Positions 27,069 through 44,275 of a stretch of DNA of 64,000 bases are shown piece after piece. Where the stretch lies: NCBI RefSeq assembly GCF_003790525.1, contig NZ_CP033635.1. One strand, given 5' to 3'. The stretch's first letter is position 1. The number at the start of each line of letters is the position of its first letter. The DNA comes from Escherichia coli. GTDB taxonomy: Bacteria; Pseudomonadota; Gammaproteobacteria; Enterobacterales; Enterobacteriaceae. Both the position numbers and the translations under genes were made by a program. A model generated the notes under the pieces. That model searched no databases and was not told the origin of the DNA. It saw nothing but the letters and a program-made list of their open reading frames with translations.

Positions 27069-27947
27069 ATGAAAATACTTCCCGTTGTCTCAACAAAAGG
27101 TGGCGAAGGTAAATCAACACAATCCGCTAACCTGGCTGGTTTTCTCGCCGATGCAGGTATCCGTACCCTGCTGATTGACGGAGATCATGCTCAGCCCACG
27201 GCAAGCAACATCTTTCCGCTGACATATGAAGCGTCAGCCGGTCTTTTTGAGTTGCTGATGCGCACGGCTGACCTCAGTTATCCCGATAACATCATTTCCC
27301 GCACAGCTATCGACGGACTCGATCTGATAGTCTCCAATGACCCTCATGAGCAGTTAAAAACTGCGATGCTTCACGCCCCGGATGGTCGTCTGCGCCTCCG
27401 GAATGTCCTGCAGCATCCGCTTTTTCTGAACAACTACGATGTCATTATAGTTGATTCTCAGGGTGCGCGTTCTGTCATGCTCGAAATGATTGTGCTGTCG
27501 GCCACTGATTCGGTTGTCGGGATGGTCAATCCGGTACTCCCTGATGTGCGCGAGTTTATTCGCGGCACTGTCAACGTTATGGAGAACCTGCTGCCTTACC
27601 GGGAACTGGGGATACCCCTGCCGAAAGTACGCACGCTGGTTAACTGCATGGATTATACGGCACTGGCCAGGAAGACGCTGGATGAGCTGGCCGGAATTAT
27701 TCAGACCGGTCGTTACAGCAGGCAGTTACCTGAAGGTGCGGTTTCCCTTCTTTCCACACAGATTTACGACCTGAATATTTACAAGCAGGGGCATGCGGCT
27801 GGTCAACCCGTACATCGTCTCGAAAAAGAATCCACACGTCGCAGTGATTCCGCGCTTGTCACGATGCACAGCCTGGCCTGTGAACTATTTCCTGAGTGGA
27901 AACAGGCGTTTGACGGGCTACTGGCTAACGGGGGAATACGTCAGTGA
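27069..27947 (+). CDS. parA: ParA/Soj-family partition ATPase (ICE end-proximal)
   Basis: 292 aa; deviant Walker A KGGEGKST; first gene inside the island next to the tRNA fragment, as in PAPI-1-type ICEs. Confidence 0.85.
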   Translation: MKILPVVSTKGGEGKSTQSANLAGFLADAGIRTLLIDGDHAQPTASNIFPLTYEASAGLFELLMRTADLSYPDNIISRTAIDGLDLIVSNDPHEQLKTAMLHAPDGRLRLRNVLQHPLFLNNYDVIIVDSQGARSVMLEMIVLSATDSVVGMVNPVLPDVREFIRGTVNVMENLLPYRELGIPLPKVRTLVNCMDYTALARKTLDELAGIIQTGRYSRQLPEGAVSLLSTQIYDLNIYKQGHAAGQPVHRLEKESTRRSDSALVTMHSLACELFPEWKQAFDGLLANGGIRQ

Positions 27948-29021: not shown

Positions 29022-30410
29022 ATGTCTGAACGCTATATTCCATGCTCCGTTGATGCAGAGCAGGCCGTGCTGGGCGGCCTGATGCTCGATAATGAACGCT
29101 GGGATGAGGTGGTACTGATGCTCCGGGGGGAGGATTTTTCTCTGGCCGCACACCGGGTGATATTCCGCACCATGTCAGAGCTGGCAACCAGCGGTCAGCC
29201 GTTCGACCTCATCACGCTGAGTGAGCATATTGAGAAAACAAACAATATTGAGGCACTGGGTGGTTTCGCTTATCTGGCTGAACTCAGCAAAAATACGCCT
29301 TCTGCAGCCAATATTATCGCTTATGCCCGTATTGTTGCTGAAAAGAGCATGCTGCGTCAGTTGCAGGAGACGGGGAATGCGCTGATTACGGATGTGGCCG
29401 CACCGGATGCGACACCACGCACTGTTCTTGAATCCGCTGAACGTCGGCTCTTTTCACTTTCACAGACTGGCATGTTGCATGAGCGATGTGAAGTCAGTCT
29501 CACCTCGGCTATGGAGCTGGCGCTGCGTCAACTGGAAGAGGGACTGAACGCCGGCGGGATGACGGGCACGCCCACGGGATTTGATGAACTGGATGAGATG
29601 ACCTGTGGTCTGCAGCCCGGCGACCTCATTCTTCTGGCTGCACGCCCGTCTATGGGGAAAACAGCGCTGGGCCTTACCTTCTGTCTTAATGCCCTGTGTA
29701 ACCGGACCGATGAAACGGTATTTCTTTTCAGTATCGAAATGTCCCGGGAGCAGCTGATTCTGCGTGTCCTGTCAATGCTCTCCAGGGTGGAGCTGACACG
29801 TCTTCGCAGCAGCATGATGGATGATGAAGAGTGGGCGAGAGTCACGGCAACCATGGGACGCTTCATGAATGAAGCGTCATTCATCGGAGATGGAAACCGC
29901 CTGATAATTGATGACACCTCCTTCCAGACGCCGTCATCGCTGCGTGCCAGCGCCCGTCGTTATGTCCGTCTGTATGGCAGACCTTCCCTGATAATGGTTG
30001 ATTACCTCCAGCTGATTCGTTCTCCGGACCAGGAGAACCGAACGCAGGAAATTGCGGAAATATCCCGCGCGCTTAAGGCGTTAGGTAAAGAGCTGGGATG
30101 CCCGGTACTGGCACTGTCTCAGCTTAACCGTCAGGTGGAGCAGCGGGCGGATAAACGCCCCAATAACGGTGACCTGCGTGATTCCGGGGCGCTGGAGCAG
30201 GATGCTGACCTCATTATGTTTATTTACCGTGACGAGGTTTATAACTCCGGCACGCTGGATAAGGGCGTTGCTGAAATCATTGTGAGCAAACAGCGGCAGG
30301 GACCAACCGGAACGATACGGGTGAACTTCGACGGCCGCTACACCCTGTTTTCACCGTTTGAACGTGGATGGAATTTTGACCGTGCCGGAGGAAATGCGTA
30401 TGTCAATTAA
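29022..30410 (+). CDS. dnaB: DnaB-like replicative DNA helicase
   Basis: DnaB N-terminal domain plus RecA-like core (Walker A ARPSMGKTAL); start set at ATG 29022 with GGAGGTGG SD instead of the TTG at 29004. Confidence 0.85.
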   Translation: MSERYIPCSVDAEQAVLGGLMLDNERWDEVVLMLRGEDFSLAAHRVIFRTMSELATSGQPFDLITLSEHIEKTNNIEALGGFAYLAELSKNTPSAANIIAYARIVAEKSMLRQLQETGNALITDVAAPDATPRTVLESAERRLFSLSQTGMLHERCEVSLTSAMELALRQLEEGLNAGGMTGTPTGFDELDEMTCGLQPGDLILLAARPSMGKTALGLTFCLNALCNRTDETVFLFSIEMSREQLILRVLSMLSRVELTRLRSSMMDDEEWARVTATMGRFMNEASFIGDGNRLIIDDTSFQTPSSLRASARRYVRLYGRPSLIMVDYLQLIRSPDQENRTQEIAEISRALKALGKELGCPVLALSQLNRQVEQRADKRPNNGDLRDSGALEQDADLIMFIYRDEVYNSGTLDKGVAEIIVSKQRQGPTGTIRVNFDGRYTLFSPFERGWNFDRAGGNAYVN

Positions 30411-32049
30411 ACGAAATCATTCCGTTGATCTGGGGGCTGCCATCATGCAACCGGGCCGTCAGGCCAGCACGGCAGGTAACGTGGTGGCGCTGGGGGAAAC
30501 ACCGATGATTCTGACGCTGGATCAACTGCGCCCCAACCCGGATAACCCGAGGACCACGCGTAATCCACGGTACGACGATATTAAAAGTTCAATTTTCTCC
30601 CGTGGACTGGATACGGTGCCCAAAGTCACCCGGATACCTGAGAGTGAGCCGGATATCTATATTTTCAGCGATGGCGGTAACACGCGATATCAGATCCTGA
30701 AAGAGCTGTGGGAAGAGACCGGTGATCAGCGTTTCTACCGTATTCATGTGCTTTTCAAGCCATGGCCGGGACGGCTTCAGTGCGTCATTGGTCACCTGGC
30801 GGAGAATGAAGTCAGGGGCGAACTGACGTTTATTGAAAAGGCCCGGGGTATCCATAAAGCACGGATGATTTATGAAGAGCAGTTAAGCAAAAGTGTGTCC
30901 ATGCGAGAGTTGTCATCCCTTTTGACTGAGCAGGGATTACCGGTGGATGCATCCAGTATCAGCCGTATGGAGAACACCCTGAAATACCTGTATCCGTGGA
31001 TCCCCGAACTTCTGGAATCAGGAATGGGGAGTCCTCAGGTCAGGGCTTTACTGTCTCTCCGGCAGGATGCGGAACGTATCTGGGGACAGTTTGCGGTGGC
31101 AACAGAGAACGGGGGGGATTTTGACCGCGTGTTTGGTGAATGCTGCAGCAAATTCAATTCACCGGAGCTCTGGTCACTGGAGATGTTCCGGGATGAGCTG
31201 ATTGGTGATCTGCTGAAAGCGTTACCACATCCGGTGCTGGATTATGACCGCTGGCTGCTTGAACTGGATCCGCGGGAACGTAACCGACGTCATCATTTTG
31301 GTGAACCTGAACCGGTGCTCATTCCCGCAGACAGTGATGCGATGCCAGAGCCTGTGACTCACGGTACGTCGGCAGTGACGGTGGAGAAGGACAGCGGAAG
31401 GGAGCAGTCTGTGATTTCCGCACCGGCTGACCATGACACAGTCATGAATACGGAGCAATCCCCTGTTGGAAAGGCGGAGAGTTCAGTTACTGAACAACGC
31501 GAAGAACGCCGCAGAAAGGAAGTCCAGCCGGATATGTATGGTGGTGAAGAAACATACAGCGGCGATTACGAAGAGGATGGCGATACCCGTGATGCTGCGG
31601 ATCTGCCGGTAACGTCACCGGAAGAGGGTGCTCAGCAGAGCATCGGTGAAATTTTCAGTGAGCCGGAATTCAGTGTTGGTGAACTGGATGATATCGAATA
31701 TCTGCAGAATGAGGCATTTCACCTGGCATGGGAGCTGGCGTCACACACAGGCTGTGTCGATGAACTGGCTATGGACAGGGAAAGCGAACTGTCTGCGGGA
31801 TTCGGCGCGGCAGAGGCGAATTGTTCTCCGGTCATGGCATTTCTTGTCAGGCTGACCGGTGAGGAGGTTCTGCGGGTTAATCCGGTTTCTCTTGATGCAC
31901 TGATGATTGGTGGCAGTACTGAAGAAGAGCCACCACTGCTGGATGATGAGCATGCCGGGAAGTTACTCCGTCTGCTTGGGGTGTTGCGTCGTCTGCGGGG
32001 GCTGCAGCGCCAGGTGGAAGAAGAGAACGTGGAGGGGCGTGATGAATAA
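30400..32049 (+). CDS. parB: ParB-like nuclease-domain protein with long acidic C-terminal region
   Basis: ParB/Srx-like motif IFSDGGNTRY near N-terminus; start overlaps dnaB stop; alternative ATG at 30394. Confidence 0.7.
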   Translation: MSIKRNHSVDLGAAIMQPGRQASTAGNVVALGETPMILTLDQLRPNPDNPRTTRNPRYDDIKSSIFSRGLDTVPKVTRIPESEPDIYIFSDGGNTRYQILKELWEETGDQRFYRIHVLFKPWPGRLQCVIGHLAENEVRGELTFIEKARGIHKARMIYEEQLSKSVSMRELSSLLTEQGLPVDASSISRMENTLKYLYPWIPELLESGMGSPQVRALLSLRQDAERIWGQFAVATENGGDFDRVFGECCSKFNSPELWSLEMFRDELIGDLLKALPHPVLDYDRWLLELDPRERNRRHHFGEPEPVLIPADSDAMPEPVTHGTSAVTVEKDSGREQSVISAPADHDTVMNTEQSPVGKAESSVTEQREERRRKEVQPDMYGGEETYSGDYEEDGDTRDAADLPVTSPEEGAQQSIGEIFSEPEFSVGELDDIEYLQNEAFHLAWELASHTGCVDELAMDRESELSAGFGAAEANCSPVMAFLVRLTGEEVLRVNPVSLDALMIGGSTEEEPPLLDDEHAGKLLRLLGVLRRLRGLQRQVEEENVEGRDE

Positions 32050-32773
32050 TGATGCAGCACGTCAGGAGCAACTGATTAAACGGATAAGAAAACTGCTGGC
32101 GCTGAGCCGGAATAACAGTAATCCCCATGAGGCAGGTCAGGCTCTTTCCCGCGCACAGGCGCTGATGCGGAAGCATGGTATCACCGAACTGGATGCTGAT
32201 ATTTCGGTGATAAAAACCTCATCATCAAAGGGAGCACCGTCAGAAGCGGAAAAAGTTCCGGTATGGATGGGGCGTCTTATGAATGTTGTTGCAGGGGCAT
32301 TCGGATGCCATACATACCTGGATTGGCGTATCACAACCGGAGGATACTGGCGGCGGATTGTCACATTTTATGGTTTTGGGGAGCGTCCGGTTGTGGCTGC
32401 GTATGCCTTTGATGTTCTCTGCCGGCAGATGCAAAAGGCGACAAAAGAGTATCTCTCAACCCAGAGCCGGAAATTAAAACACTCAACCCGTCGTGCAAGA
32501 GCTGCGATGTTTCGTGACGGCTGGGTTTATGGGGTGCGTGATGTGGTGGATGCATTCCGGCTCACGGAAGATGAGACGCGTGTAATGAATACGTGGCTGC
32601 AGAACCAGCAATTTGAGGGAATGGTCGTCTTCCGGGAGGTAAAGGACTGCCATGGCGGTGACCATGCACGCTGGCAGGGATACAACGAGGGGAAAAAGGC
32701 AACGCTGAATCACGGTGTTGGTTCCCGGGATCTGAGACCGGAAAGCCTGATATCAGGCGGAGGTGAGGTATGA
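32042..32773 (+). CDS. conserved ICE hypothetical protein
   Basis: Start at ATG 32042 (MNNDAARQ) overlapping parB stop; the longer track ORF from 31907 is an upstream read-through. Confidence 0.6.
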   Translation: MNNDAARQEQLIKRIRKLLALSRNNSNPHEAGQALSRAQALMRKHGITELDADISVIKTSSSKGAPSEAEKVPVWMGRLMNVVAGAFGCHTYLDWRITTGGYWRRIVTFYGFGERPVVAAYAFDVLCRQMQKATKEYLSTQSRKLKHSTRRARAAMFRDGWVYGVRDVVDAFRLTEDETRVMNTWLQNQQFEGMVVFREVKDCHGGDHARWQGYNEGKKATLNHGVGSRDLRPESLISGGGEV

Positions 32774-33348
32774 GTAATAACTTGTCACAGGCCACCAACG
32801 GACTGTTGATGCAGCTGGTGATGGATCTCAAAAGTGGCTATCTGCGCCGCTGTGAAGCGCTGGGGCTTTCCCGGGAAGAAATGCAGATGCTGCAGGGGCT
32901 GAGTATTGAGGAAATTCACTATCTGTCAAATTCAGAGGTGTCAGTGCTGCGGCTGGATATTAACCACAATAACCTTGTACGCATGCTGCAGCAGGCCAGG
33001 ACTGAACAGAAACGCCTGCAGCGAATCGATCGCGCTCTTGCACTGGGGGGATCGATTGAACTCATGGCGTTTTATTTTGGCCTTTCCAGTGTGGACGTTG
33101 CAGCACGGCGCCGTATTTCAGGAATTGATGTGCGCCCGGGGCGGGGTATCACACTCAGCGATGATGAAAACTCTGAACTCTGGAGACTGTGGCAGAAAGC
33201 AGGGATTAACGATGTGGAGAGCGCTGACGGGCTGGACGTCATGATGCTCTGTGCAGAGCAGATGAATATCCCGCTCACGGCCGTCTGGCATGCTGTCAGG
33301 GGGTGGCATACAGCCGGAAGCCCTGAACAGGTAAGGAATGCGTCATGA
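32770..33348 (+). CDS. conserved ICE hypothetical protein
   Basis: 192 aa; ATGA start/stop overlap with neighbours. Confidence 0.55.
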   Translation: MSNNLSQATNGLLMQLVMDLKSGYLRRCEALGLSREEMQMLQGLSIEEIHYLSNSEVSVLRLDINHNNLVRMLQQARTEQKRLQRIDRALALGGSIELMAFYFGLSSVDVAARRRISGIDVRPGRGITLSDDENSELWRLWQKAGINDVESADGLDVMMLCAEQMNIPLTAVWHAVRGWHTAGSPEQVRNAS

Positions 33349-33593
33349 AGATGAAAGAGCTGGTTCCCGGTCTGCTGAGCTGTCCCGGGGTACCGCCAGC
33401 CTGCCAGCGGAAGGCGGTGGACCTCGTTAACCGGTTTCGTCGCGGGGAGAGGAATTACCATGAACTGAAGGAAAAGGGATTCGGGTATATCAAGATTAAT
33501 GTTGGTCCGGACTGGCGGTTACTGAGCAGGAACCGGGGACAAACCTGGGCGCTGTTGAGTCACGAGCGATACAACAATATGAGACTGAGGTAG
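33345..33593 (+). CDS. small hypothetical protein (cargo cluster gene 1)
   Basis: 82 aa; ATGA overlap with upstream gene. Confidence 0.5.
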   Translation: MKMKELVPGLLSCPGVPPACQRKAVDLVNRFRRGERNYHELKEKGFGYIKINVGPDWRLLSRNRGQTWALLSHERYNNMRLR

Positions 33594-33599
33594 AGCAAA

Positions 33600-33776
33600 A
33601 TGACTGATTTTGGTTCAACTAAATATAACGCCAGTTTTGAAGAATGGCATGAAGTGTTAATGGACTATGCCGGGTTACGTGGTGGAAGTGCCGCCGATGC
33701 CGAAGCATGGCGCGATGACTATGAAGCTGGAAAAACGCCTGTCGAAGCATATTGCGATGAGTGGGGTGATGAATGA
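33600..33776 (+). CDS. small acidic hypothetical protein, 58 aa (below the ORF-track size cutoff)
   Basis: ATG 33600 to TGA 33774-33776, translated MTDFGSTKYNASFEEWHEVLMDYAGLRGGSAADAEAWRDDYEAGKTPVEAYCDEWGDE; stop overlaps next start (ATGA at 33773). Confidence 0.5.
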   Translation: MTDFGSTKYNASFEEWHEVLMDYAGLRGGSAADAEAWRDDYEAGKTPVEAYCDEWGDE

Positions 33777-33985
33777 GCAAAATTGACTATCAGGAGCTGC
33801 GTGAGGCGGCAGAAAAGGCAATGCATGACGACTGGGGATTTGACACGGACCTTTTCTATGAGCTGGTAGAACCATCGATTGTGCTGGCTCTGCTGGATGA
33901 ATGCGAGACGCTGGCAACTGAGAATGCGAAGCTGAAGACAGCACACCCTCAACTGTTCGGGAAAGCTGAAGGAGCGACAAAATGA
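33773..33985 (+). CDS. small protein with Ead/Ea22-like N-terminal motif (MSKIDYQELRE)
   Basis: 70 aa; shares N-terminal motif with the 34190 gene. Confidence 0.55.
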   Translation: MSKIDYQELREAAEKAMHDDWGFDTDLFYELVEPSIVLALLDECETLATENAKLKTAHPQLFGKAEGATK

Positions 33986-34203
33986 GCAAGCCAACCGACG
34001 AAGAAATAGTTCGGGTGTTGGAAGAACACGGGCGCTGTATGACTTACGTCGTGACCAACTGGCTTAGGGATAAATATCGCACACTCAAAACGGCATACGT
34101 TTTGCGTCGTCTAAAGAAACTGGAGTTCGACGGGAAAGTAAAGCGCGTTAACAGTTCTTATATAAGACAAATTTGCTGGGAGGCAACCAGTGAGCGAGAT
34201 TGA
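33982..34203 (+). CDS. small basic hypothetical protein (possible DNA-binding)
   Basis: 73 aa; overlapping start/stop in operon. Confidence 0.5.
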   Translation: MSKPTDEEIVRVLEEHGRCMTYVVTNWLRDKYRTLKTAYVLRRLKKLEFDGKVKRVNSSYIRQICWEATSERD

Positions 34204-34789
34204 TTATCAGGCGCTACGGGAACGTTATTCACCTAAGCCAGTACCTGAATGCTCTGTTTGTGGCGAGGAAATGTCAATACAGCGCATATCTGGAGCACAT
34301 GTTGTTTATGCCTGTTCCGGTGAGGGTGATGACGGATATTTTAAGATAGGGCGTACTTTTGCAGACGAACATTATGAAGAATCACGCGTAACAGTAGTTG
34401 ATGATAGTGATCCCGATGTGATTGCACTACTGGACGAACTGGAGGCAGCAAAATCAAAACTCAACGAGCAGCGTGAATATTACGAGGGAGTAATCGCGGA
34501 TGGGAGTAAGCGTATTGCAGAACTGGAAGCACGGGAAATAAAACCAGCCAAAGGCGAAGTTCTTGTCGTTGTATCTGGTTTTACTGGTTGCGGAAAAAGC
34601 GCCATTGCCGGGGAAATAGAAATCGCGATGAAGGCTATTGGTGTGCCGGTTCTATGGACTAATGGCGATGCGGAAAAGCGCATGACAGGAGCTGACTGGC
34701 TGACAGCGATTGAGATGTACAAACCAAATGTGCGCATCGTGGAAGTTAATGTGCCACGCGTCGCTGGCATTCGCACCAAAGGAGAGTGA
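34190..34789 (+). CDS. Ead/Ea22-like prophage-type protein (assignment from memory of the N-terminal motif)
   Basis: 199 aa; N-terminus MSEIDYQALRE, CxxC...C zinc-ribbon-like segment, coiled-coil middle. Confidence 0.55.
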   Translation: MSEIDYQALRERYSPKPVPECSVCGEEMSIQRISGAHVVYACSGEGDDGYFKIGRTFADEHYEESRVTVVDDSDPDVIALLDELEAAKSKLNEQREYYEGVIADGSKRIAELEAREIKPAKGEVLVVVSGFTGCGKSAIAGEIEIAMKAIGVPVLWTNGDAEKRMTGADWLTAIEMYKPNVRIVEVNVPRVAGIRTKGE

Positions 34790-34790
34790 T

Positions 34791-35306
34791 ATGGCGTTAA
34801 CACACCGCGAACTCTGTCAGATTGCGTACAAGTTCCTTAAGCGCAACGGGTTCAAGGTTTGTTTTCATGACCGCTTTATAGCTGTAACCAGTACCGGAGA
34901 GCAGCCAGATGCTATGGGATTCAGAAATTCAGCATCATGCCTGATAGAGGCGAAATGTTCTCGTGCTGACTTGTTGGCAGATAGAAAAAAGCGTTTTCGT
35001 AAAAATCCATCTCTTGGAATGGGCGACTGGCGATTCTTTATTAGTGAGCCGGGAATTATTTCAATTGAGGATTTACCACCTGGCTGGGGATTACTTCACG
35101 TTGTTAACGGAAGAGTACGGAAAGTACATGGGTGGCCCAGGGGTAATTGCTGTTGGGGTAATCCTGACGATAAGCCATTTACTGGAAATAAGCAGGTTGA
35201 ATGCGATTACATGTTATCTGCATTAAGGCGCATGGAGTTGAGAGGGCACCTTAATGAAATATATGACGGTGTAATTGTTAATAAGAAAGAAGGAAACGCA
35301 GCATGA
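34791..35306 (+). CDS. hypothetical protein with PD-(D/E)xK nuclease-like motif
   Basis: 171 aa from ATG 34791 with GGAGAG SD; motif ...EQPDAMGF...CLIEAKCS... Confidence 0.5.
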   Translation: MALTHRELCQIAYKFLKRNGFKVCFHDRFIAVTSTGEQPDAMGFRNSASCLIEAKCSRADLLADRKKRFRKNPSLGMGDWRFFISEPGIISIEDLPPGWGLLHVVNGRVRKVHGWPRGNCCWGNPDDKPFTGNKQVECDYMLSALRRMELRGHLNEIYDGVIVNKKEGNAA

Positions 35307-35701
35307 TCACTATTACCAAAGAGCGACTGCTGACAATCCAGCAGTGGCGCGAAACATACGGACCTGGTAGCAACGTTGTATTGCCAGCAGAAGAAGCGGA
35401 AGAACTGGCACGAATTGCACTGGCATTGCTGGAAGCAGAACCGCTGGTGCCCGTCATGTATAAAGGAATGAAACTGTTAACAAAAGAGGGGCTTGAGCTT
35501 ATTCGTGACGGTATTGCTGAGGCTACAGGACTGGAAGCAATGTGTATGGCTGAGGCTTTGCTGTCTGGGGCGTCAGTGCCGTCAGTGCCAGAAGAAATGT
35601 ATTGGCAGGATGCGCCTGTTGGAGGCAGTAGCAAAGCAGCTGCATACGCGACAGGCTGGAATGCCTGTCGCGCCGCAATGCTTCAGGGAAAAGGAAAGTG
35701 A
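35303..35701 (+). CDS. hypothetical protein, paralog A of a shared N-terminal module
   Basis: 132 aa; first ~45 aa nearly identical to the 36134 gene. Confidence 0.55.
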   Translation: MITITKERLLTIQQWRETYGPGSNVVLPAEEAEELARIALALLEAEPLVPVMYKGMKLLTKEGLELIRDGIAEATGLEAMCMAEALLSGASVPSVPEEMYWQDAPVGGSSKAAAYATGWNACRAAMLQGKGK

Positions 35702-35702
35702 T

Positions 35703-35924
35703 ATGGCTAACTCGTTACTTGAAACCTGCAACAACTGGCAGATTCAGAGGGCGGAGATTTTATCTCGCAATCCAGATATGGCAATGACAATTGATAATCT
35801 GGACACGCTAATTGAACGGACCGTGCGTTCTGCAATTGATATAGCACATCGAGTGGATTGGGATTTCAGAGAAGCGGAGCGGCTTGCTAAAGAGCAGGAG
35901 AAAGCAGCGGGTAAAGGAGACTGA
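35703..35924 (+). CDS. small hypothetical protein
   Basis: 73 aa from ATG 35703 (MANSLLETC); track ORF 35493 is an upstream extension. Confidence 0.5.
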   Translation: MANSLLETCNNWQIQRAEILSRNPDMAMTIDNLDTLIERTVRSAIDIAHRVDWDFREAERLAKEQEKAAGKGD

Positions 35925-35925
35925 T

Positions 35926-36123
35926 ATGGATAAAAACACCACTGCTTACTGGAATCTGTCACTTGATACCGAATGCCCAAAATGCGGTCACAATTTCGAT
36001 CTGCTTTGTGATCCAGATTTCTGGGAATTTTCTGGAGCAAAACAGGCATGTGAAGAAATAAAAGGTTACGAAACATGCTGTCCAGAATGTAACCATGAAT
36101 TTAAAACAGATTTTGTGTATTGA
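35926..36123 (+). CDS. small zinc-ribbon protein (CPKCG...CCPECNH)
   Basis: 65 aa from ATG 35926; two CxxC pairs. Confidence 0.5.
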   Translation: MDKNTTAYWNLSLDTECPKCGHNFDLLCDPDFWEFSGAKQACEEIKGYETCCPECNHEFKTDFVY

Positions 36124-36133
36124 GGCATAACAA

Positions 36134-36547
36134 ATGACCACTATAACCAAAGAGCGACTGCTGACAATCAAGCAGTGGCGCGAAACATACGGACCGGGTA
36201 GCAACGTTGTACTGCCAGCAGAAGAAGCGGAAGAACTGGCACGGATTGTACTGGCATCGCTGGAAGCGGAACCGGTGGCGTGGATGTGTGATGACGAAGA
36301 TGGTCGTGAATATAACGGTCATAACGAGTTTTCTTATGGAAGACGCGGGATTCCCCTTTACGCCGTCCCGCCAGCGCCGAATGGATTGGTTAAAGCCGTA
36401 GCTTTCTATGAGCAGGTTAAACGTGAAAATCCGCCAGTTGAAACGGGAGCATGGAAAGACGCCGTTGACTGGGTGCTTAAACAAGCTTGTCAGGCTGTAA
36501 ACACTGGCATCAATGAAAGAAGAACAATTGAAGAAAATGATGATTGA
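36134..36547 (+). CDS. hypothetical protein, paralog B of a shared N-terminal module
   Basis: 137 aa; N-terminal ~45 aa shared with the 35303 gene, C-terminus unrelated. Confidence 0.55.
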   Translation: MTTITKERLLTIKQWRETYGPGSNVVLPAEEAEELARIVLASLEAEPVAWMCDDEDGREYNGHNEFSYGRRGIPLYAVPPAPNGLVKAVAFYEQVKRENPPVETGAWKDAVDWVLKQACQAVNTGINERRTIEENDD

Positions 36548-36595
36548 GCCGGAAGCAGCAAAAAAGCGCATTGCAGAACTGGAGGAGCGCCGGTC

Positions 36596-36811
36596 ATGAG
36601 AAAAATCAGTGGAATGTTGAACCTGGAGAAGGCCAGGATGCAGTTGCGTGTTTTGTTATCAGGACCGGTTCCTGCGATCACTCCGATGTCGCATGCCGTG
36701 GCAATTAAAGTTGTGCCTGATGCTCCGGATGCGAGTGAGCGGAGGGTGGCTGAACTGGAACAGGCCTGCGCTGCCGCGGGCATTCGTATCAAAGGGGAAC
36801 AAGTGAAATGA
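36596..36811 (+). CDS. small hypothetical protein
   Basis: 71 aa; operon context. Confidence 0.45.
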   Translation: MRKISGMLNLEKARMQLRVLLSGPVPAITPMSHAVAIKVVPDAPDASERRVAELEQACAAAGIRIKGEQVK

Positions 36812-37029
36812 AACTGAAGATGCAGGCAATGGACGGCCCGGTGATTATAGAGAGTAGTGATGTGACACAGTTTTACCCTGACCATGAAAGTGGCGGGGAA
36901 CTCACCGCTGTTGAGTACCTTGCTGACGGGGGAAGAATCACCGCGAGGGTGAGTCACTCTTTTTATCAGGTTGCTGCGGCACTTGCCGGGGCATGGCGTG
37001 CGGATGATGCATCAAAAAGCGGTGGGTGA
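36808..37029 (+). CDS. small hypothetical protein
   Basis: 73 aa; ATGA overlap with upstream gene. Confidence 0.45.
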   Translation: MKLKMQAMDGPVIIESSDVTQFYPDHESGGELTAVEYLADGGRITARVSHSFYQVAAALAGAWRADDASKSGG

Positions 37030-37289
37030 GGACTGTGCCGGAATGATTGTCTGTTCCGAAGCTGCTGAACCGCGACATAAATTTTTTATGTTGCGGTGAA
37101 GCAGCCGGCAAACGAAGAGCGTCAGCGTATCAACAGTTAAGGAAAATATCTTCTGAAGCCGGACGCGACAGTCAGTCCGGTGGTGCTCGTGTGGTGAAGT
37201 GTTTAGCCTGCATCTTTGACAGGGTTCAGTTATAAGCATTTCGGAAACCGTTCCCCGGCGCAGTCTGCCGGGATTTAAGGAGTTTATTT

Positions 37290-38555
37290 ATGGCGCTACC
37301 TGCAGAAAGCCTTATTGCGCATACGCTCAGAAAAATGAAGGCCAGCATGGCAGAGAAAGCCAGTCGTGAGGACGGGAGGATACGCAGTGGGCTGTTGTTT
37401 ACCGGCAATGTTCACGATTCGTATCCCCGCAGGCTGTTGCTGGATACGCGCCTTTCTCCCCTTGATAAAACTGCGTGGATGATGATTCGTCTGCATGCCC
37501 TGAATAATGAGGGCGCAGTATTTCCGACGTACGATGAACTGCAGTTACAACTGGCATCTCCCGGGTGCGGGAAGGCGTCCCGTGAAACAGTGAGCCGGGT
37601 GCTGACAATGCTGCGGCTTACGGGCTGGCTGAGTCTGTGTAAGCGGGTCAGGGATGAAAAAGGGCGGGTCCGGGGGAATATTTACGCCCTGCATGATGAG
37701 CCACTGACCTGCTGTGATGCAGAAAAGTTTGACCCACGATACCTGGATATGGTTCTGGATACTGTGAGCAGGAGCCGGAACAAGACAATCCGGCACACAG
37801 CCAGTGAAGTGCTCAGTGATATCAAAAATGAGCCCGGTATGCGGCATTACCACAGCCATATCACTCTGTTTGAATCGCGTATGGGGGCAGCACAGACACC
37901 TGGTCAGCTGGCGGCGCGTCAGCGGGTGAACCCGATGGTGAATGAAAACACAGGCAGAGAGAGTGGTTCGGATTCCGTACATACCCCTGCACCTGTCGTG
38001 CAGGTAACCGAACTCAGTGCTCCGTTAACCGAACTCAGTGAAAAACAGGAAATGAGCCCACTCAGTTCGGATTCCGTACCGCCTGAAAAATCAGTAACTT
38101 ATCACTCGGTTCGGAAACCGAACAATTACGTACGTAATATCACACACAGTGTGATTAAAAATACGTACGTATTGCCTGAGTCGGTGAAATCGCAAATCAG
38201 CACAGAAGACACGGACATGCTGACAAAACAACTGCAGGCGTTGCCGGAAGAACTGGCAGGTAGTGTGCTGAGCAGCCTGTCACAGATGCTCAGCAAAAAC
38301 ACGCTCCAGAATCCGGTTGGCTGGATGCTGGCTGTGATGAAACGTGCGCGTGAGGGAAGTTTTAATACGCCGGATATGTCCGTGCATGAATCCCGGTCGC
38401 CAGCCCGTGCACCATATCAGCCTGTGTACAACCGTGATGAACGTGAACGTCGTCGCAGGAAAGTGGCGTCACCTGAAACGGTGAGCAACATTGTCGCAGA
38501 ATTCCGTGCCAGCCTGAAACGTGCAAATGCTGCCCGTCTGGCGGCGCGTGTTTGA
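37290..38555 (+). CDS. putative ICE replication/regulatory protein (winged-helix-like N-terminal region), adjacent to repeat array
   Basis: 421 aa; stop lies 2 nt before the 36-bp repeat array; resembles pathogenicity-island replication proteins in position. Confidence 0.55.
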   Translation: MALPAESLIAHTLRKMKASMAEKASREDGRIRSGLLFTGNVHDSYPRRLLLDTRLSPLDKTAWMMIRLHALNNEGAVFPTYDELQLQLASPGCGKASRETVSRVLTMLRLTGWLSLCKRVRDEKGRVRGNIYALHDEPLTCCDAEKFDPRYLDMVLDTVSRSRNKTIRHTASEVLSDIKNEPGMRHYHSHITLFESRMGAAQTPGQLAARQRVNPMVNENTGRESGSDSVHTPAPVVQVTELSAPLTELSEKQEMSPLSSDSVPPEKSVTYHSVRKPNNYVRNITHSVIKNTYVLPESVKSQISTEDTDMLTKQLQALPEELAGSVLSSLSQMLSKNTLQNPVGWMLAVMKRAREGSFNTPDMSVHESRSPARAPYQPVYNRDERERRRRKVASPETVSNIVAEFRASLKRANAARLAARV

Positions 38556-38556
38556 T

Positions 38557-39384
38557 GGTTAAAAATCGTACGGTGTTGGCAGTGCCAACAGTGGTTAAAA
38601 ATTGTGCGGTGTTGGCAGTGCCAACAGTGATTAAAAAATGTACGGTGTTGGCAGTGCCAACAGTGGTTAAAAATTGCGCGGTGTTGGCAGTGCCAACAGC
38701 GGTTAAAAAGTGTACGGCGTTGGCAGTGCCAACAGTGATTGAAAAATGTACGGTGTTGGCAGTGCCAACAGTGATTAAAAAATGTACGGTGTTGGCAGTG
38801 CCAACGGTGATTAAAAAATGTACGGTGTTGGCAGTGCCAACAGTGGTTAAAAATTGCGCGGTGTTGGCAGTGTCAACAGTGGTTAAAAATTGTGCGGTGT
38901 TGGCAGTGCCAACAGTGATTAAAAAATGTACGGTGTTGGCAGTGCCAACAGTGGTTAAAAATTGCGCGGTGTTGGCAGTGCCAACAGCGGTTAAAAAGTG
39001 TACGGCGTTGGCAGTGCCAACAGTGATTGAAAAATGTACGGTGTTGGCAGTGCCAACAGTGATTAAAAAATGTACGGTGTTGGCAGTGCCAACGGTGATT
39101 AAAAAATGTACGGTGTTGGCAGTGCCAACAGTGGTTAAAAATTGCGCGGTGTTGGCAGTGCCAACAGTGGTTAAAAATTGTGCGGTGTTGGCAGTGCCAA
39201 CAGTGATTAAAAAATGTACGGTGTTGGCAGTGCCAACAGCGGTTAAAAAGTGTACGGCGTTGGCAGTAGCAACAGCGATTAAAAAATGTACGGTGTTGCC
39301 AGTGGCAACAGTGGTTAAAAAGTGTCCGGCGTTGCCAGTGGCAACAGTGTTTGAAAATTGTACTGAGTTGGCACTGCCAACATG
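38557..39384. repeat. array of 23 tandem 36-bp direct repeats, each with a 17-bp palindrome TGTTGGCAGTGCCAACA (iteron/centromere-like)
   Basis: Directly counted units of 36 bp from 38557; higher-order periodicity of 288 bp (8 units); last units degenerate. Confidence 0.9.
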
Positions 39385-39486
39385 ACGTAATTTCAGTCAT
39401 TCCTTTTTTTATTTTTGATTGTCAGATCTCCGTCTGCAGGCTGACTATTTCAGCCCGATATCCTTTTCTTTTGCCGGAGATATAAC

Positions 39487-40212
39487 ATGTCTGAAGAACA
39501 AATGAAGGAACCCGCATCCCGTCGTGTAGGTGCGCTTACTTCACCAGTGAATATCGAGTTGCACTCCCGTTATGCAATCATGCTGTGGGAAGGGAGACGA
39601 GGCACGAAAAGTAAAAGTGCTGAAGATCGCAGGGCAGCGAAAATAATGAGTATGCCGGAAGCTATTAAGATGACTGGCGGCCTCTACAGAGATTCTCTTG
39701 CTGATAATCCCTATGCGGATGAAACGATGTGGAAAGTTGAAAATGCGATTGTTGAGGCAACCGATAAAATTAATGCTGAAGTTCGTGTACTTGAAGGGAT
39801 CCTCAGAAATATTCCGTCAGTGATCACTGTCCGGGATGCTCTTTCTCGTTCTCCTGTCGATATTGGGGTTTTCAGCCGCTCTCCTCTGGGCTACCGCTGT
39901 GTATGGCTTCTTGTCGGGTATGATCAGCTTGCATTAAAAACGTTTCAGGCAGCACATCTGGGGCTTATTTCACGAAACAGGCGTGATGAGTTGTTGTCTT
40001 CTGGTGCGCATCTTATCCGCAAAATTTACGGTATTCTGCAGGGGTATCGCACTATGGCGGTAACTCGGGATGATATTGAGAATAAAACAGAAAAGGCAGA
40101 GAAAGCTATTGCCCGTTATGGTATGCCTCATGATGATATTCTATCCGGTAAGCTCAGATCTTCATTTTCTCCGCCCCTGAACCGTAAGTCCCGTGATGCA
40201 TCCCGGCAATGA
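39487..40212 (+). CDS. conserved ICE hypothetical protein upstream of topB
   Basis: 241 aa; GGAGAT SD. Confidence 0.6.
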   Translation: MSEEQMKEPASRRVGALTSPVNIELHSRYAIMLWEGRRGTKSKSAEDRRAAKIMSMPEAIKMTGGLYRDSLADNPYADETMWKVENAIVEATDKINAEVRVLEGILRNIPSVITVRDALSRSPVDIGVFSRSPLGYRCVWLLVGYDQLALKTFQAAHLGLISRNRRDELLSSGAHLIRKIYGILQGYRTMAVTRDDIENKTEKAEKAIARYGMPHDDILSGKLRSSFSPPLNRKSRDASRQ

Positions 40213-40228
40213 CAGGTGAGGAGAATTC

Positions 40229-42247
40229 ATGCGTCTCTTTTTGTGTGAGAAACCTTCACAGGCCGGTGATATAGCCAGAGTACTTGGGGCTGCCAGACGT
40301 GTTGATGGTGCGATTGAAGGTAAGGACTTTGTTGTGACCTGGGCCTTTGGTCACTTGCTGGAGCAGGCGCCACCGGAGGCGTATGGTGAGCAGTTTGGCA
40401 GTCCCTGGAAAATTGACGTTTTGCCGGTCTTTCCTGAACAGTGGCAGATGGTGGTGAAGGATAATGTCGGGAAGCAGTTTAATGTGATCAGCCGCCTTCT
40501 CCGTAAGGCTGATGAAGTGGTGATTGCCACTGACGCCGATCGTGAAGGCGAAATTATCGCAAGGGAACTGCTGGATTATTGTGGTTATACCGGCGTTGTG
40601 CGCCGTCTCTGGCTGTCCGCACTGGATGAGAGCAGTATCAGGGAGGCGCTGGGCAGGATACTGCCCGGAGAGGAGACCGAGAAGTTATATGAAGCCGGTA
40701 AGGGACGCAGCCGGGCTGACTGGCTGACGGGGATCAACCTGACGCGTCTGTATACCCTGAAAGCCAGGGAGTGTGGTGTGTCCGGCGTCCTCTCTGTTGG
40801 CAGGGTGCAGACGCCCACGCTTGCGATGGTGGTCAGACGGGATGCAGAAATCAAAAATTTTATTCCGGTACCTTACTGGCAACTGTATCTCTGGCTGGAG
40901 AAGGACAATGTGCGTTTTCGTACCTCCTGGATTGCGGCAGCGCAGTACTGCGATACTGAAAAACGGTGTGTGAATGTGCAGGCGGCAACAGCCGTCCTGT
41001 CACAGTGTCGTCAGGCCGGTGTTGCTGTTGTCAGGGATGTCAGCAGCAGACGGGAGAAAAAGCAGCCTCCGCTGTGTTTTTCGCTCGGAACGCTGCAGGA
41101 GGTCTGTTCGCGCAAATTTGGCCTCGGCGCGCAGGCCGTTCTTGATATAGCCCAGTCGCTGTACGAAAAGCATAAGGCGACAACATATCCGCGTACAGAT
41201 TGCGGTTATCTGCCTGTGTCGATGTACAAAGAAGTGCCTGACGTACTGGCAGCGCTGGAAAAAACCGATCCGGATATTGCCCCGGAGCTGGCAAAACTCA
41301 GTCCTGATATTGTGTCGGGGATCTGGAACGACAGGAAGATCACCGCGCATCATGCGATAATCCCCACCCGTCAGCCGTTTAATATTGGGGCGCTGAGTGA
41401 TAATGAGCTTAAGGTGTACCGGTTAATTCGTCAGCATTATCTGGCTCAGTTTTTACCCGTTCAGGAGCTGGATGTCACAGAGGCCACTTTTCTTGTTGCG
41501 GGGCAGTTGTTTGGAACGCGGGGGCGAGTGGAGGTTGTCAGGGGATGGCGTGCGCTTTTTGTGTCAGATTCGGCGGGAGAGGAAGAGGATGTTGCAGACG
41601 ATGAGCAGGCGATGCCCCTTCCCGTACTGGCAAAAGGCGATGAATGTCGTCCTGCTGAAGCTGAACTCAAAGAGATGCAGACCACGCCACCGCGTCATTA
41701 TACGGAAGGCACGCTGATTGCGGCGATGAAAAACGCTGCGGGGATGGTGAGTGATCCGGCACTGAAAAAAGTGTTACGCGAAAATGCGGGGCTGGGCACT
41801 GAAGCGACCCGCGCAGAAATACTGGAAACGTTGTTCACCCGCAAATATATCGAGAAGCAGGGTAAGCATATCCGTGCCACGCAACTGGGGGCGGAGCTGA
41901 TAGCGGGATTGCCGGAGGCGCTGACCAGTCCGGGGACAACGGCGCTGTGGGAACAGGCTCTGGATGATATTGCACAGGGTAAACTGTCACTGTCGTCATT
42001 TATGGAAAAGCAGAAACAGTGGCTTAACCACCTGGTGGCCGGTGCAAGGCAGCAGCAACTGCAGATCACGGCACCGGTTACGCCGGCATGCCCTCTTTGT
42101 GGGAGCAGAATGCGGAAAGTGAAGATGAAAAGCGGGAAAGGGGAATTCTGGAGCTGCCAGCGTTATCCGGAGTGTAAGGGAGTGATTTCAGAGCAGAAAC
42201 CGACATCCGGGAAACGGGGCGGCAGAAAAATTAAAAAGCATGGATGA
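40229..42247 (+). CDS. topB: DNA topoisomerase III
   Basis: 672 aa; Toprim N-terminus (MRLFLCEKPSQAGDIARVLG...ATDADREGE), C-terminal zinc ribbon CPLCG...C..C. Confidence 0.85.
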   Translation: MRLFLCEKPSQAGDIARVLGAARRVDGAIEGKDFVVTWAFGHLLEQAPPEAYGEQFGSPWKIDVLPVFPEQWQMVVKDNVGKQFNVISRLLRKADEVVIATDADREGEIIARELLDYCGYTGVVRRLWLSALDESSIREALGRILPGEETEKLYEAGKGRSRADWLTGINLTRLYTLKARECGVSGVLSVGRVQTPTLAMVVRRDAEIKNFIPVPYWQLYLWLEKDNVRFRTSWIAAAQYCDTEKRCVNVQAATAVLSQCRQAGVAVVRDVSSRREKKQPPLCFSLGTLQEVCSRKFGLGAQAVLDIAQSLYEKHKATTYPRTDCGYLPVSMYKEVPDVLAALEKTDPDIAPELAKLSPDIVSGIWNDRKITAHHAIIPTRQPFNIGALSDNELKVYRLIRQHYLAQFLPVQELDVTEATFLVAGQLFGTRGRVEVVRGWRALFVSDSAGEEEDVADDEQAMPLPVLAKGDECRPAEAELKEMQTTPPRHYTEGTLIAAMKNAAGMVSDPALKKVLRENAGLGTEATRAEILETLFTRKYIEKQGKHIRATQLGAELIAGLPEALTSPGTTALWEQALDDIAQGKLSLSSFMEKQKQWLNHLVAGARQQQLQITAPVTPACPLCGSRMRKVKMKSGKGEFWSCQRYPECKGVISEQKPTSGKRGGRKIKKHG

Positions 42248-42937: not shown

Positions 42938-43402
42938 ATGTCTGCAACTAACTCTACTTCTGCAAAAACTGAATACTTCAACCTGACCATGAAAGGTCTT
43001 GGGTATCTCAGCAATGTACGTCAGGTTAACCATCAGAACGGTTCGTTCCTCAGCTGCGTGATTAACGCACTGAGTGGACCAACGGACAATCCGTCCTATA
43101 CGCGTTTTGATGTCACGGTTGCCGGTAAAGAGGCGACCACCCTGATCTCCCGCTGCCAGAAAGCAGTGGATGAGGACCGCAAGGTACTGCTTGGTTTTAC
43201 GTTAAGCAACCTTGCCACCGACATTTTCACCCTGAACAAGGGGGAGCATGCCGGTGAGCAACGCGTCAGCCTGAAAGCCCGCCTGATCAAGGTGGACTGG
43301 ATAAAAATAGGCCAGGAGCAGGTCTATAAGGCTGAAAAAGCGGAGTCCCAGCCACCGAGCCATGGCACCACAAAACGTGAATACGCAGAAGACTCCTTCT
43401 GA
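42938..43402 (+). CDS. conserved ICE hypothetical protein
   Basis: 154 aa; GGAGAAA SD; followed by hairpin terminator (~43410-43470). Confidence 0.6.
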   Translation: MSATNSTSAKTEYFNLTMKGLGYLSNVRQVNHQNGSFLSCVINALSGPTDNPSYTRFDVTVAGKEATTLISRCQKAVDEDRKVLLGFTLSNLATDIFTLNKGEHAGEQRVSLKARLIKVDWIKIGQEQVYKAEKAESQPPSHGTTKREYAEDSF

Positions 43403-43717: not shown

Positions 43718-44275
43718 ATGGCTTCACGCGGCGTAAACAAAGTTATCCTGATAGGACATCTGGGGCAGGATCCGGATATCCGGTATTTCCCCAATGGCGG
43801 TGGCGCTGTGGCGAATCTGTCACTGGCGACCAGCGACACCTGGCGGGATAAACAGAGCGGTGAAATGAAGGAAGTTACTGAATGGCACCGCGTTGTTCTC
43901 TATGGAAAACTGGCTGAAGTTGCCGGCGAGTACCTGCATAAGGGGTCGCAGGTGTATATAGAAGGCCAGCTTAAAACCCGTAAATGGTTTGACCAGCAGA
44001 ATGGTGTGGACCGTTATTCAACTGAGGTTGTTGTGGGCGTGAATGGTGTCATGCAGATGCTGGGTTCATCGCGTCAGCAGGGCGCTTCCGGTAATGGTGC
44101 TTCAGCACTGGCACAAGGGGGCCAGGGACATCCGCCGAAGACGACCGGACAGACTGGTCGTGCCACCCGGACGACGTCAACGGGTAATGGTGCTCCACCA
44201 ATGGACTTTGACGATGATATCCCCTTTATGGGGCTCGGGTATGGCATGGAACGACGAATTATTCATGCCATGTAA
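43718..44275 (+). CDS. ssb: single-stranded DNA-binding protein
   Basis: 185 aa; OB-fold N-terminus, Gly/Gln-rich linker, acidic tail ending DFDDDIPF. Confidence 0.9.

Follow-up and report, generated by a model that had tools for sequence, protein, structure and literature searches.

In the integrative conjugative element (ICE) ICEclc, the 550-aa ParB-like protein BisD is a cytidine triphosphate (CTP)-dependent clamp that loads at two palindromic bisS sites, GAGCTATCCCCnGGGGATAGCTC, spreads over ~50 kb and, together with BisC, activates transfer promoters (PMC12409273). The bisS sites are single 23-bp sequences, bisS-1 in inrR and bisS-2 in ssb, and BisD carries the motifs GNTR (residues 92-95) and ENELR (136-140) (PMC12409273). 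BisC, its partner in ICEclc, is a DUF2857 protein (PMC7423338). In PFGI-1, a 'putative oriV' (vegetative origin of replication) was placed immediately upstream of PFL_4669, where there are four copies of a 23-bp palindrome and four 46-bp direct repeats, each with a 21-bp inverted repeat, containing AGTGTTGTGGGCCACACCACT (PMC2647930). A putative oriV was also proposed for ICEHin1056 from iteron-like repeats in its replication module, with pKLC102, SPI-7 and PAPI cited as similar (PMC2258188). Here we describe an array of 23 tandem 36-bp units in a 64-kb stretch of Escherichia coli DNA (contig NZ_CP033635.1), the whole of which is referred to as the window. The window carries an ICE of the SPI-7/pKLC102/PFGI-1 family, whose E. 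coli member in the literature is ICEEc2, and the array probably serves the element's own ParB-family protein as a loading or centromere site.

The family is a vehicle for the spread of virulence and resistance genes in Enterobacterales and Pseudomonas. As labels in the SPI-7/pKLC102 family, 'replication protein' and 'oriV' are unproven, and in the accessible papers the oriV labels of PFGI-1 and ICEHin1056 rest on sequence features only. It is already known that there is a repeat region at this place, described as 'putative oriV' some 20 years ago; what is new is comparative evidence that points to a ParB/BisD-type array with repeatedly switching specificity. The repeats of pKLC102 are reportedly 16 in number and 57 bp long. 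As in PFGI-1, pKLC102 and ICEHin1056, the repeats described here belong to an ICE of the same family, lie upstream of a PFL_4669-family gene and are direct repeats that hold an inverted repeat. They differ in having a period of 36 bp, 23 copies and another palindrome, and in that the evidence leads towards ParB rather than a Rep protein. Two types of plasmid array are also relevant. The sopC centromere of plasmid F is a tandem of 12 repeats of 43 bp, and in each of them the ParB-family protein SopB binds a 7-bp inverted repeat. The iterons of RK2, pSC101 and P1 are asymmetric sequences of ~17-22 bp; Rep monomers bind them, and DnaA boxes and an AT-rich region are found alongside.

Tandem Repeats Finder reported one array at 38556-39382 (period 36, 23.0 copies, 89% matches, zero indels, score 1234), in agreement with the 23 contiguous units counted in an earlier, sequence-only reading of this DNA. 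Its in-register start, 38557, is 2 nt past the TGA stop of the 421-aa open reading frame (ORF) at 37290-38555, also as first read. Each unit is built of G-R-T-T-A5-6, then ~8 nt, then a 17-bp palindrome with the consensus TGTTGGCA-G-TGCCAACA. The palindrome had been said to occur in every unit, which holds for all 23, although it is exact in only 14 and has 1-3 changes in the other nine; a dyad-symmetric site in the range of ~16-23 bp is thus found in 23 of 23 units. When the 64-kb window was searched with TGTTGGCANTGCCAACA, allowing up to three mismatches, there were 23 matches and all 23 lay inside the array. The chance expectation was 0.48 matches, and none of 100 shuffles reached 23. In the variant units L and M both arms of the palindrome are altered together, which fits recognition by a dimer. 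Their variant, TGTTGCCAGTGGCAACA, is that of most units in the arrays of E. coli EC17CM2 and EC554.

The order of the units is A BCDEFGC H BCDEFGC I B JKLMN, and the identity of the array with itself at a lag of 288 bp is 0.939 compared with ~0.89 at other lags. The 288-bp super-repeat of the sequence-only reading therefore stands as a block of eight units that recurs, but it reflects a single duplication and not long-range higher-order structure. A single copy of this block is present in the array of strain 64.1. The same array, in versions of 18 and 24 units, is present in complete E. coli genomes and is therefore not an assembly artefact. Judged by the unit strings, single units and one 8-unit block account for the differences between the arrays of the window, 5CRE51 and 64.1, in agreement with the expansion and contraction that had been foreseen. 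Among complete E. coli genomes, there are 18 units in strain 64.1, 23 in the window, 24 in 5CRE51, 6.3 in L083, 5.3 in L094 and 1.9 in L095, all with GGCA in the bulk of the array; 18.6 in EC17CM2 and 25.6 in EC554, both with GCCA; and 14.3 in 2013C-3033, with TGGTGGCA. The array is real and unstable in copy number; its size, which had been called unusual, is not so in this lineage, where close relatives have 18-26 units.

For a wider comparison, one genome per species was scanned with an alignment of STY4528, the family of the 421-aa protein, which gave 80 loci. In the window, direct repeats that each hold an inverted repeat lie immediately upstream of the PFL_4669-family gene in a ParA-DnaB-ParB...SSB-TopB module, and this position recurs in at least 80 related loci. 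In many relatives the unit is G-R-Y-T-A5-6, ~8 nt and a 17-bp palindrome, with a period of 36 bp or composite periods of 105-250 bp. Others have one or two sites with A-tracts on both sides, on the same strand. The number of units at the array position ranges from 1 to ~26. The palindrome of the window, TGTTGGCA, is also found in Mixta and several Xenorhabdus; further types are TGTTGCCA, TG(C/T)TGACA, TGTTGCCC, TG(C/T)TGCGG, GTGTGCCC and TGTTTCCC, and Photorhabdus has TGATTAGA.

We noted that elements with nearly identical backbones can carry different palindromes, and asked which protein changes with them. Among ICEs of Serratia and Morganella, L031 and L040 have GCTGCCA sites and L067 has GTTGACA sites, with backbone proteins that are 96-99% identical between the three; the more distant L035 is in the class of L067, G(T/C)TGACA. 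An unbiased four-way scan of single-nucleotide polymorphisms (SNPs) across these elements placed 100 class-linked sites in parB, with a peak over the region of the helix-turn-helix (HTH), and small clusters elsewhere. At the protein level, class-linked substitutions were found in ParB only. The structured domains of the STY4528, AcaB-like and DUF2857 proteins had zero class-linked changes in this comparison.

The same was seen within E. coli. The palindromes of L083 (STEC2018-553) and L084 (2013C-3033) differ by a change at a single symmetric position, with TGTTGGCA in the former replaced by TGGTGGCA throughout the 14 bulk units of the latter. The SNP profile of this pair has a spike of 47 differences in 250 bp, which correspond to 13 substitutions at ParB residues 161-192, i.e. 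in the HTH. The DUF2857 proteins of the two are identical and the STY4528 proteins differ only at residues 176-377. In a third comparison, the bulk palindrome changes from GGCA in L001 (64.1) and the window to GCCA in L082 (EC17CM2) and L096 (EC554). Here the AcaB-like, DUF2857, DnaB and TopB proteins are identical, STY4528 differs only at residues 205-390, and the differences in ParB are at residues 209, 211, 215 and 216, where the helix after the HTH begins, and in the linker. Between L001 and L082, 17 of the 19 palindromes differ in type. The converse also holds, since L083, L094 and L095 have a common HTH and a common palindrome, as EC17CM2 and EC554 have a common ParB and a common palindrome. 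As far as sequence comparison can tell, then, the site and the HTH region of ParB change together.

The comparison was extended to 78 pairs of ICEs whose backbones are at least 90% identical; the half-site is shared in 34 of these pairs and differs in 44. Identity over ParB residues 144-232 separated the two groups with an area under the curve (AUC) of 0.846 (means 0.938 and 0.835), a value that, because the pairs are not independent, counts as supporting evidence and not as a probability. The best AUC for any other segment was 0.715, and the values for the AcaB-like protein, DUF2857 and the N-terminus of STY4528 were 0.654, 0.580 and 0.484, respectively.

These data bear directly on the proposal that the array is the oriV of the excised element, with iterons bound by the STY4528 'replication protein', which would in turn recruit the island's DnaB. 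The sequence-only reading had listed origin iterons, and the adjacent 421-aa protein as their binder, among its candidates, and the proposal has the precedent of the putative oriV upstream of PFL_4669 in PFGI-1 (PMC2647930) and of the iteron-like repeats of ICEHin1056 (PMC2258188). As with plasmid iterons, tandem direct repeats of variable copy number lie beside a gene annotated as encoding a replication protein (the name given by NCBIfam). The array abuts the STY4528-family stop codon in almost every relative, the neighbourhood includes dnaB, ssb and topB, and the protein has a winged helix with a weak Pfam resemblance to HTH_36 and DnaD_N only; its AlphaFold2 model was poor (predicted local distance difference test score, pLDDT, 54), so that no claim is made about its fold. 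Yet the winged-helix recognition motif, ASRETVSRVLLMLRITGWLS...GRVRGNIYAQH, is essentially invariant across the palindrome classes, including the unrelated site of Photorhabdus (TGATTAGAGTCTAATCA). A protein whose recognition motif is invariant while the palindromes differ completely cannot set palindrome specificity. In none of the three comparisons of close relatives did a change in the N-terminal DNA-binding domain of STY4528 track the palindrome switch, and the AUC of this segment was the 0.484 given above. The units themselves are 17-bp dyad-symmetric palindromes in a 36-bp frame rather than asymmetric iterons of 17-22 bp. There is no DnaA box within 10 kb of the array (the nearest match to TTWTNCACA is at 49545) and no strongly AT-rich stretch near it that could serve for unwinding (minimum GC content 0.425). 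In ICEclc, the model element of the family, the excised form needs oriT1 and the TraI relaxase to replicate (bioRxiv 10.1101/451864), and an experimental test of the oriV assignment was not found in the accessible literature. We therefore regard both the iteron claim and its assignment to the adjacent protein as unlikely, although the invariant A-tract part of the unit could still be a target of the invariant winged helix.

The array also fills most of the region upstream of the AcaB-family gene, since it sits between this gene and the STY4528-family gene. It might then be an operator or enhancer of the AcaB-family gene, with either the gene's own AcaB-like product or the DUF2857 (BisC-like) activator as its binder. 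In ICEclc the promoter at the corresponding position, PinR, is among those activated by BisDC (PMC7423338), and GGCA-type terminal units beside the start of the AcaB-like gene are kept where the bulk of the array has switched. Against this, L001 and L082 have different palindromes but identical AcaB-like and DUF2857 proteins, L083 and L084 do not differ in DUF2857, and the matched-pair AUCs of both proteins fall below that of the ParB HTH region. The BisC motif of ICEclc is moreover a 15-nt sequence with a weak inverted repeat at a 12-bp distance, and not a perfect 17-bp palindrome. An operator of this kind seems very unlikely. The retained terminal units can be seen in L082 (12158-12245) and L084 (12076-12111; compare 39349-39384 in the window), where the last one or two units beside the AcaB-like gene remain GGCA-type despite the switch in the bulk; this suggests that the promoter-proximal unit is under separate constraint.

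A possible connection between the array and bisS came from distant homologues of STY4528 (29-36% identity), which are encoded in compact loci. The gene order in these is ParA, DnaB, a 530-580-aa ParB-like protein, DUF2857, the STY4528 homologue, a palindrome, the AcaB-like gene, DUF3158 and SSB. The order reported for ICEclc, bisD-bisC-orf96323...inrR-ssb, matches that of the compact loci, from which we infer that orf96323 is its STY4528-family gene. In L086, a 2-kb metagenome contig with DUF2857 followed by the STY4528 homologue, GGCTATCCCCAGGGGATAGCC is found 9 nt past the stop of the homologue and contains GCTATCCCCnGGGGATAGC, the 19-bp core of the bisS site reported to be bound by BisD. 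This core was seen in L086 only, and the full 23-bp ICEclc bisS pattern was absent from every fetched locus. At the array position of other loci the sequence is TGCCACCCAGGGTGGCA, TGTTTCCACTGGAAACA (which closely resembles canonical parS), TTATGCCAGTGGCATAA or AGTGTTGCGGGCCGCAACACT. In L088, a distant relative, the sequence at this position (5870-5935), TGTTTCCACTGGAAACA, is one insertion away from the canonical chromosomal parS, TGTTTCACGTGAAACA, which suggests that the ICE sites derive from parS. The sites of the array are odd-centred like bisS and have the outer TGTT...AACA in common with canonical parS.

The proposed binder resembles ParB proteins in its motifs and predicted fold. The ParB-family protein of the window matches TIGR03764 (NCBIfam) and carries the CTP-pocket motifs GNTR and ENEVR. 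Its length is 549 aa, as against the 550 aa reported for BisD, and a DUF2786 gene lies between the parB and DUF2857 genes. An AlphaFold2 model (pLDDT 82.5) places predicted HTH helices at residues 168-177 and 184-197 and matches structures of Noc, KorB and ParB over ~240 columns with probability 1.0 in Foldseek. A single-sequence search of the PDB gave zero matches, a profile search of PDB sequences gave a weak match to KorB (E=0.039), and Pfam found nothing significant in this protein or, beyond the weak resemblance already described, in STY4528.

The locus resembles that of ICEclc in belonging to the same ICE superfamily, in its neighbourhood of ParB-like, DUF2857 and STY4528-family genes with a palindrome, in the odd centre of the palindrome and in a ~550-aa protein with GNTR and ENxxR motifs, to which the bisS core at the array position of L086 can be added. 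It differs in having 23 tandem intergenic 17-bp sites with A-tract flanks instead of two single 23-bp sites inside inrR and ssb, and the sequences are unrelated (GAGCTATCCCC... in bisS, TGTTGGCA... in the array). The subfamily of the window additionally encodes DnaB, DUF2786 and TopB. With sopC the array has in common a tandem arrangement with one palindromic site for a ParB-family protein per unit, and the amplification of copies though one site suffices. The period is 36 bp instead of 43 bp, the element is integrative, and a role in gene activation, as reported for BisD and KorB, is possible for the array.

We consider that the array is, on balance, probably an amplified bisS/parS-like loading or centromere array for the ICE's own BisD-like ParB-family CTP clamp. 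A ParB-bound centromere-like site was the other candidate of the sequence-only reading, and it is favoured by the covariation of HTH and palindrome, both in the three comparisons and in the matched pairs, and by the bisS core in L086. Binding, clamp loading, gene activation and partition are all predicted steps. On activation of the element, ParB dimers would recognise the 17-bp palindromes through the HTH, close into CTP-bound clamps and slide into the flanking DNA. Sliding would be mainly downstream, with transcription, into the AcaB-like gene, topB, ssb and the transfer genes, where the clamps would help the DUF2857 (BisC-like) protein to turn on transfer; together with ParA, they could also partition the excised circle. 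Many copies of the unit would raise the loading capacity, and copy number would drift through unequal recombination.

The size of the array can also be explained without such a function. One or two palindromes might be functional and the other ~20 units a neutral, satellite-like amplification; alternatively, the units might form hairpins in the transferred single strand, for example in priming. A single flanked palindrome suffices in many relatives, copy numbers run from ~2 to ~26 among E. coli elements with the same proteins, and the arrays change in whole-unit or 8-unit steps, as unequal recombination predicts. The single strands of the array fold into hairpins beyond shuffled controls (z = -6.0 and -5.1). 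Hairpin formation is, however, an automatic property of palindromes and leaves the covariation with ParB unexplained. Neutral units would not be expected to stay 89-92% alike with palindrome and A-tract kept, nor their variant palindromes to remain symmetric. Moreover, whole arrays have switched type along with the ParB HTH, which argues that many copies are seen by the protein. This explanation, in either form, has little probability in our judgement.

Several observations weigh against the array being a ParB loading platform, apart from the non-independence of the matched pairs. The support for the pairing of ParB and array is comparative throughout. Two elements are exceptions: in L030, from Xenorhabdus, a ParB HTH of one class stands beside palindromes of another, and L056 has an HTH near-identical to that of the window with bulk units of TGTTGCCCCGGGCAACA and GGCA-type units at both ends. 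Phylogeny dominated the per-column mutual information over the whole set, which gave ParB no special place and was left out of the evidence; a comparison of identities within and between classes was likewise confounded by phylogeny, and partial Mantel tests did not discriminate (0.425 for the ParB HTH, 0.468 for DUF2857, 0.354 for TopB). The C-terminal half of the ParB-family protein had no BLASTP similarity to that of a distant homologue, so that homology to the BisD activation domain is unsupported. Many plasmid centromeres abut their par genes, and sopC directly follows sopB, but 6.5 kb separates the array from parB. Finally, the invariance of the A-tract across elements is left unexplained by ParB binding.

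A tract of A5-6 is found at fixed distances on both sides of every palindrome, including the isolated sites of L011, L021, L034 and L062. A two-part unit can be imagined, in which the variable palindrome is for the fast-evolving ParB/BisD-like clamp and the invariant A-tract for a second, conserved factor, possibly STY4528 with its invariant winged helix. The array would then couple loading of the ParB clamp to DnaB-dependent replication or to activation of the excised ICE, and the repeated switching of site specificity would be an orthogonality or incompatibility code that lets related ICEs coexist in one genome. This elaboration is tentative and rather unlikely as a whole. We found eight genomes with two or more ICEs of the SPI-7/pKLC102/PFGI-1 family, and in five of the eight the palindrome classes differ (L012/L016, L024/L026, L040/L067, L046/L056 and L004/L077); in the other three they are the same (L014/L015, L042/L052 and L034/L041). 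This hints at selection for ParB-site pairs that do not cross-react, in numbers too small for a conclusion.

If the array is indeed a loading platform for a BisD-like ParB, the ICEclc mechanism would extend to the SPI-7/ICEEc2 branch, and the array and ParB would together offer a direct handle on the switching-on of transfer and on the stability of these islands after excision. The evolution of ParB specificity could also be studied in this family, which would provide a natural series of ParB/site specificity switches that involve small HTH blocks and single symmetric base changes.

The coordinates of the array and of the surrounding genes are collected in Table 1. The gene order was taken from the RefSeq annotation of a 98%-identical copy and from NCBIfam.

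Table 1. Features of the array and its neighbourhood in the window
Feature	Position	Strand	Evidence
ParA-family ATPase, left end of element, possible partition partner of ParB and the array	27069-27947	+	RefSeq annotation of relative, NCBIfam
SPI-7-type DnaB	29022-30410		RefSeq annotation of relative, NCBIfam
ParB-family protein, 549 aa, TIGR03764, proposed palindrome binder	30400-32049	+	NCBIfam, motifs, AlphaFold2, Foldseek, covariation
DUF2786 protein	32042-32773		RefSeq annotation of relative, NCBIfam
DUF2857 protein (Pfam family of BisC)	32770-33348	+	RefSeq annotation of identical relatives
Variable block of small genes	~33.3-37.2 kb		
STY4528-family 'replication protein', 421 aa, N-terminal winged helix	37290-38555	+	NCBIfam NF040582
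Array of 23 head-to-tail 36-bp units	38557-39384	+	Tandem Repeats Finder, unit table, pattern search, matching architecture in relatives
8-unit (288-bp) block, copy 1, units B C D E F G C H	38593-38880	+	Unit strings
8-unit (288-bp) block, copy 2, units B C D E F G C I	38881-39168	+	Unit strings, lag-288 identity
Units L and M, symmetric variant palindrome TGTTGCCAGTGGCAACA	39277-39348	+	Unit table, pattern search
Terminal unit N (AGTTGGCACTGCCAACA), nearest the downstream promoter	39349-39384	+	Unit table
AcaB-family transcriptional regulator (PFL_4669 family, TIGR03761)	39487-40212	+	Pfam PF08900 (E=8.8e-74), NCBIfam
Topoisomerase III	40229-42247		
STY4534 family	42938-43402		
SSB	43718-44275		
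Type IV pilus and conjugation genes	downstream of SSB		

Other explanations for the repeats were examined and rejected. An array of clustered regularly interspaced short palindromic repeats (CRISPR) was ruled out, as it had been on first reading, because the units are contiguous and have no unique spacers between them. A coding repeat was considered for the 277-aa ORF at 38552-39385, in which the variable positions have no third-codon bias; the ORF exists because the period of 36 is a multiple of three. Ten matches to TTGGCA-16-AAAAAT, which might have indicated an array of promoters, are a by-product of the repeat. An Rfam search of 36000-42000 gave zero matches.

NCBI annotation often overlays such arrays with spurious hypothetical ORFs. 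In RefSeq, the Prokaryotic Genome Annotation Pipeline (PGAP) has placed 'hypothetical proteins' over the array at 38552-39385 (+) and 38873-39400 (-) in the window, at 13556-14206 (+) in L001 and at 11540-12151 (-) in L084. These are almost certainly spurious ORFs produced by a stop-free 36-bp repeat, as they lie on opposite strands in different genomes. Short-read contigs of several relatives (L005, L063, L073, L086, L087 and L088) end 30-80 bp past the STY4528-family stop. This is as expected if the array breaks assembly, and copy numbers from draft genomes are then underestimates.

The array region was matched in 109 E. coli chromosomes, and a megablast search of 37000-40500 against plasmid and phage collections gave no match. 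Between the DUF2857 and STY4528 genes, the block 33345-37240 contains many small ORFs. In relatives the corresponding interval has ParE toxin-like, ead/Ea22-like, DUF7446 and hypothetical genes. No other part of the module varies as much between close relatives, and there are many indels in this block.

A search of the whole window for tRNA genes found none. In two relatives, EC17CM2 and 5CRE51, a tRNA-Ser gene is ~65 bp upstream of parA, and the element of strain 64.1 abuts a truncated alpha-amylase gene beside avtA. The left junction of the copy in the window may be rearranged. In IncC plasmids, activation runs through an AcaB / AcaCD circuit, which is paralleled here by the AcaB-family gene together with the gene for DUF2857, the FlhC-like family of BisC.

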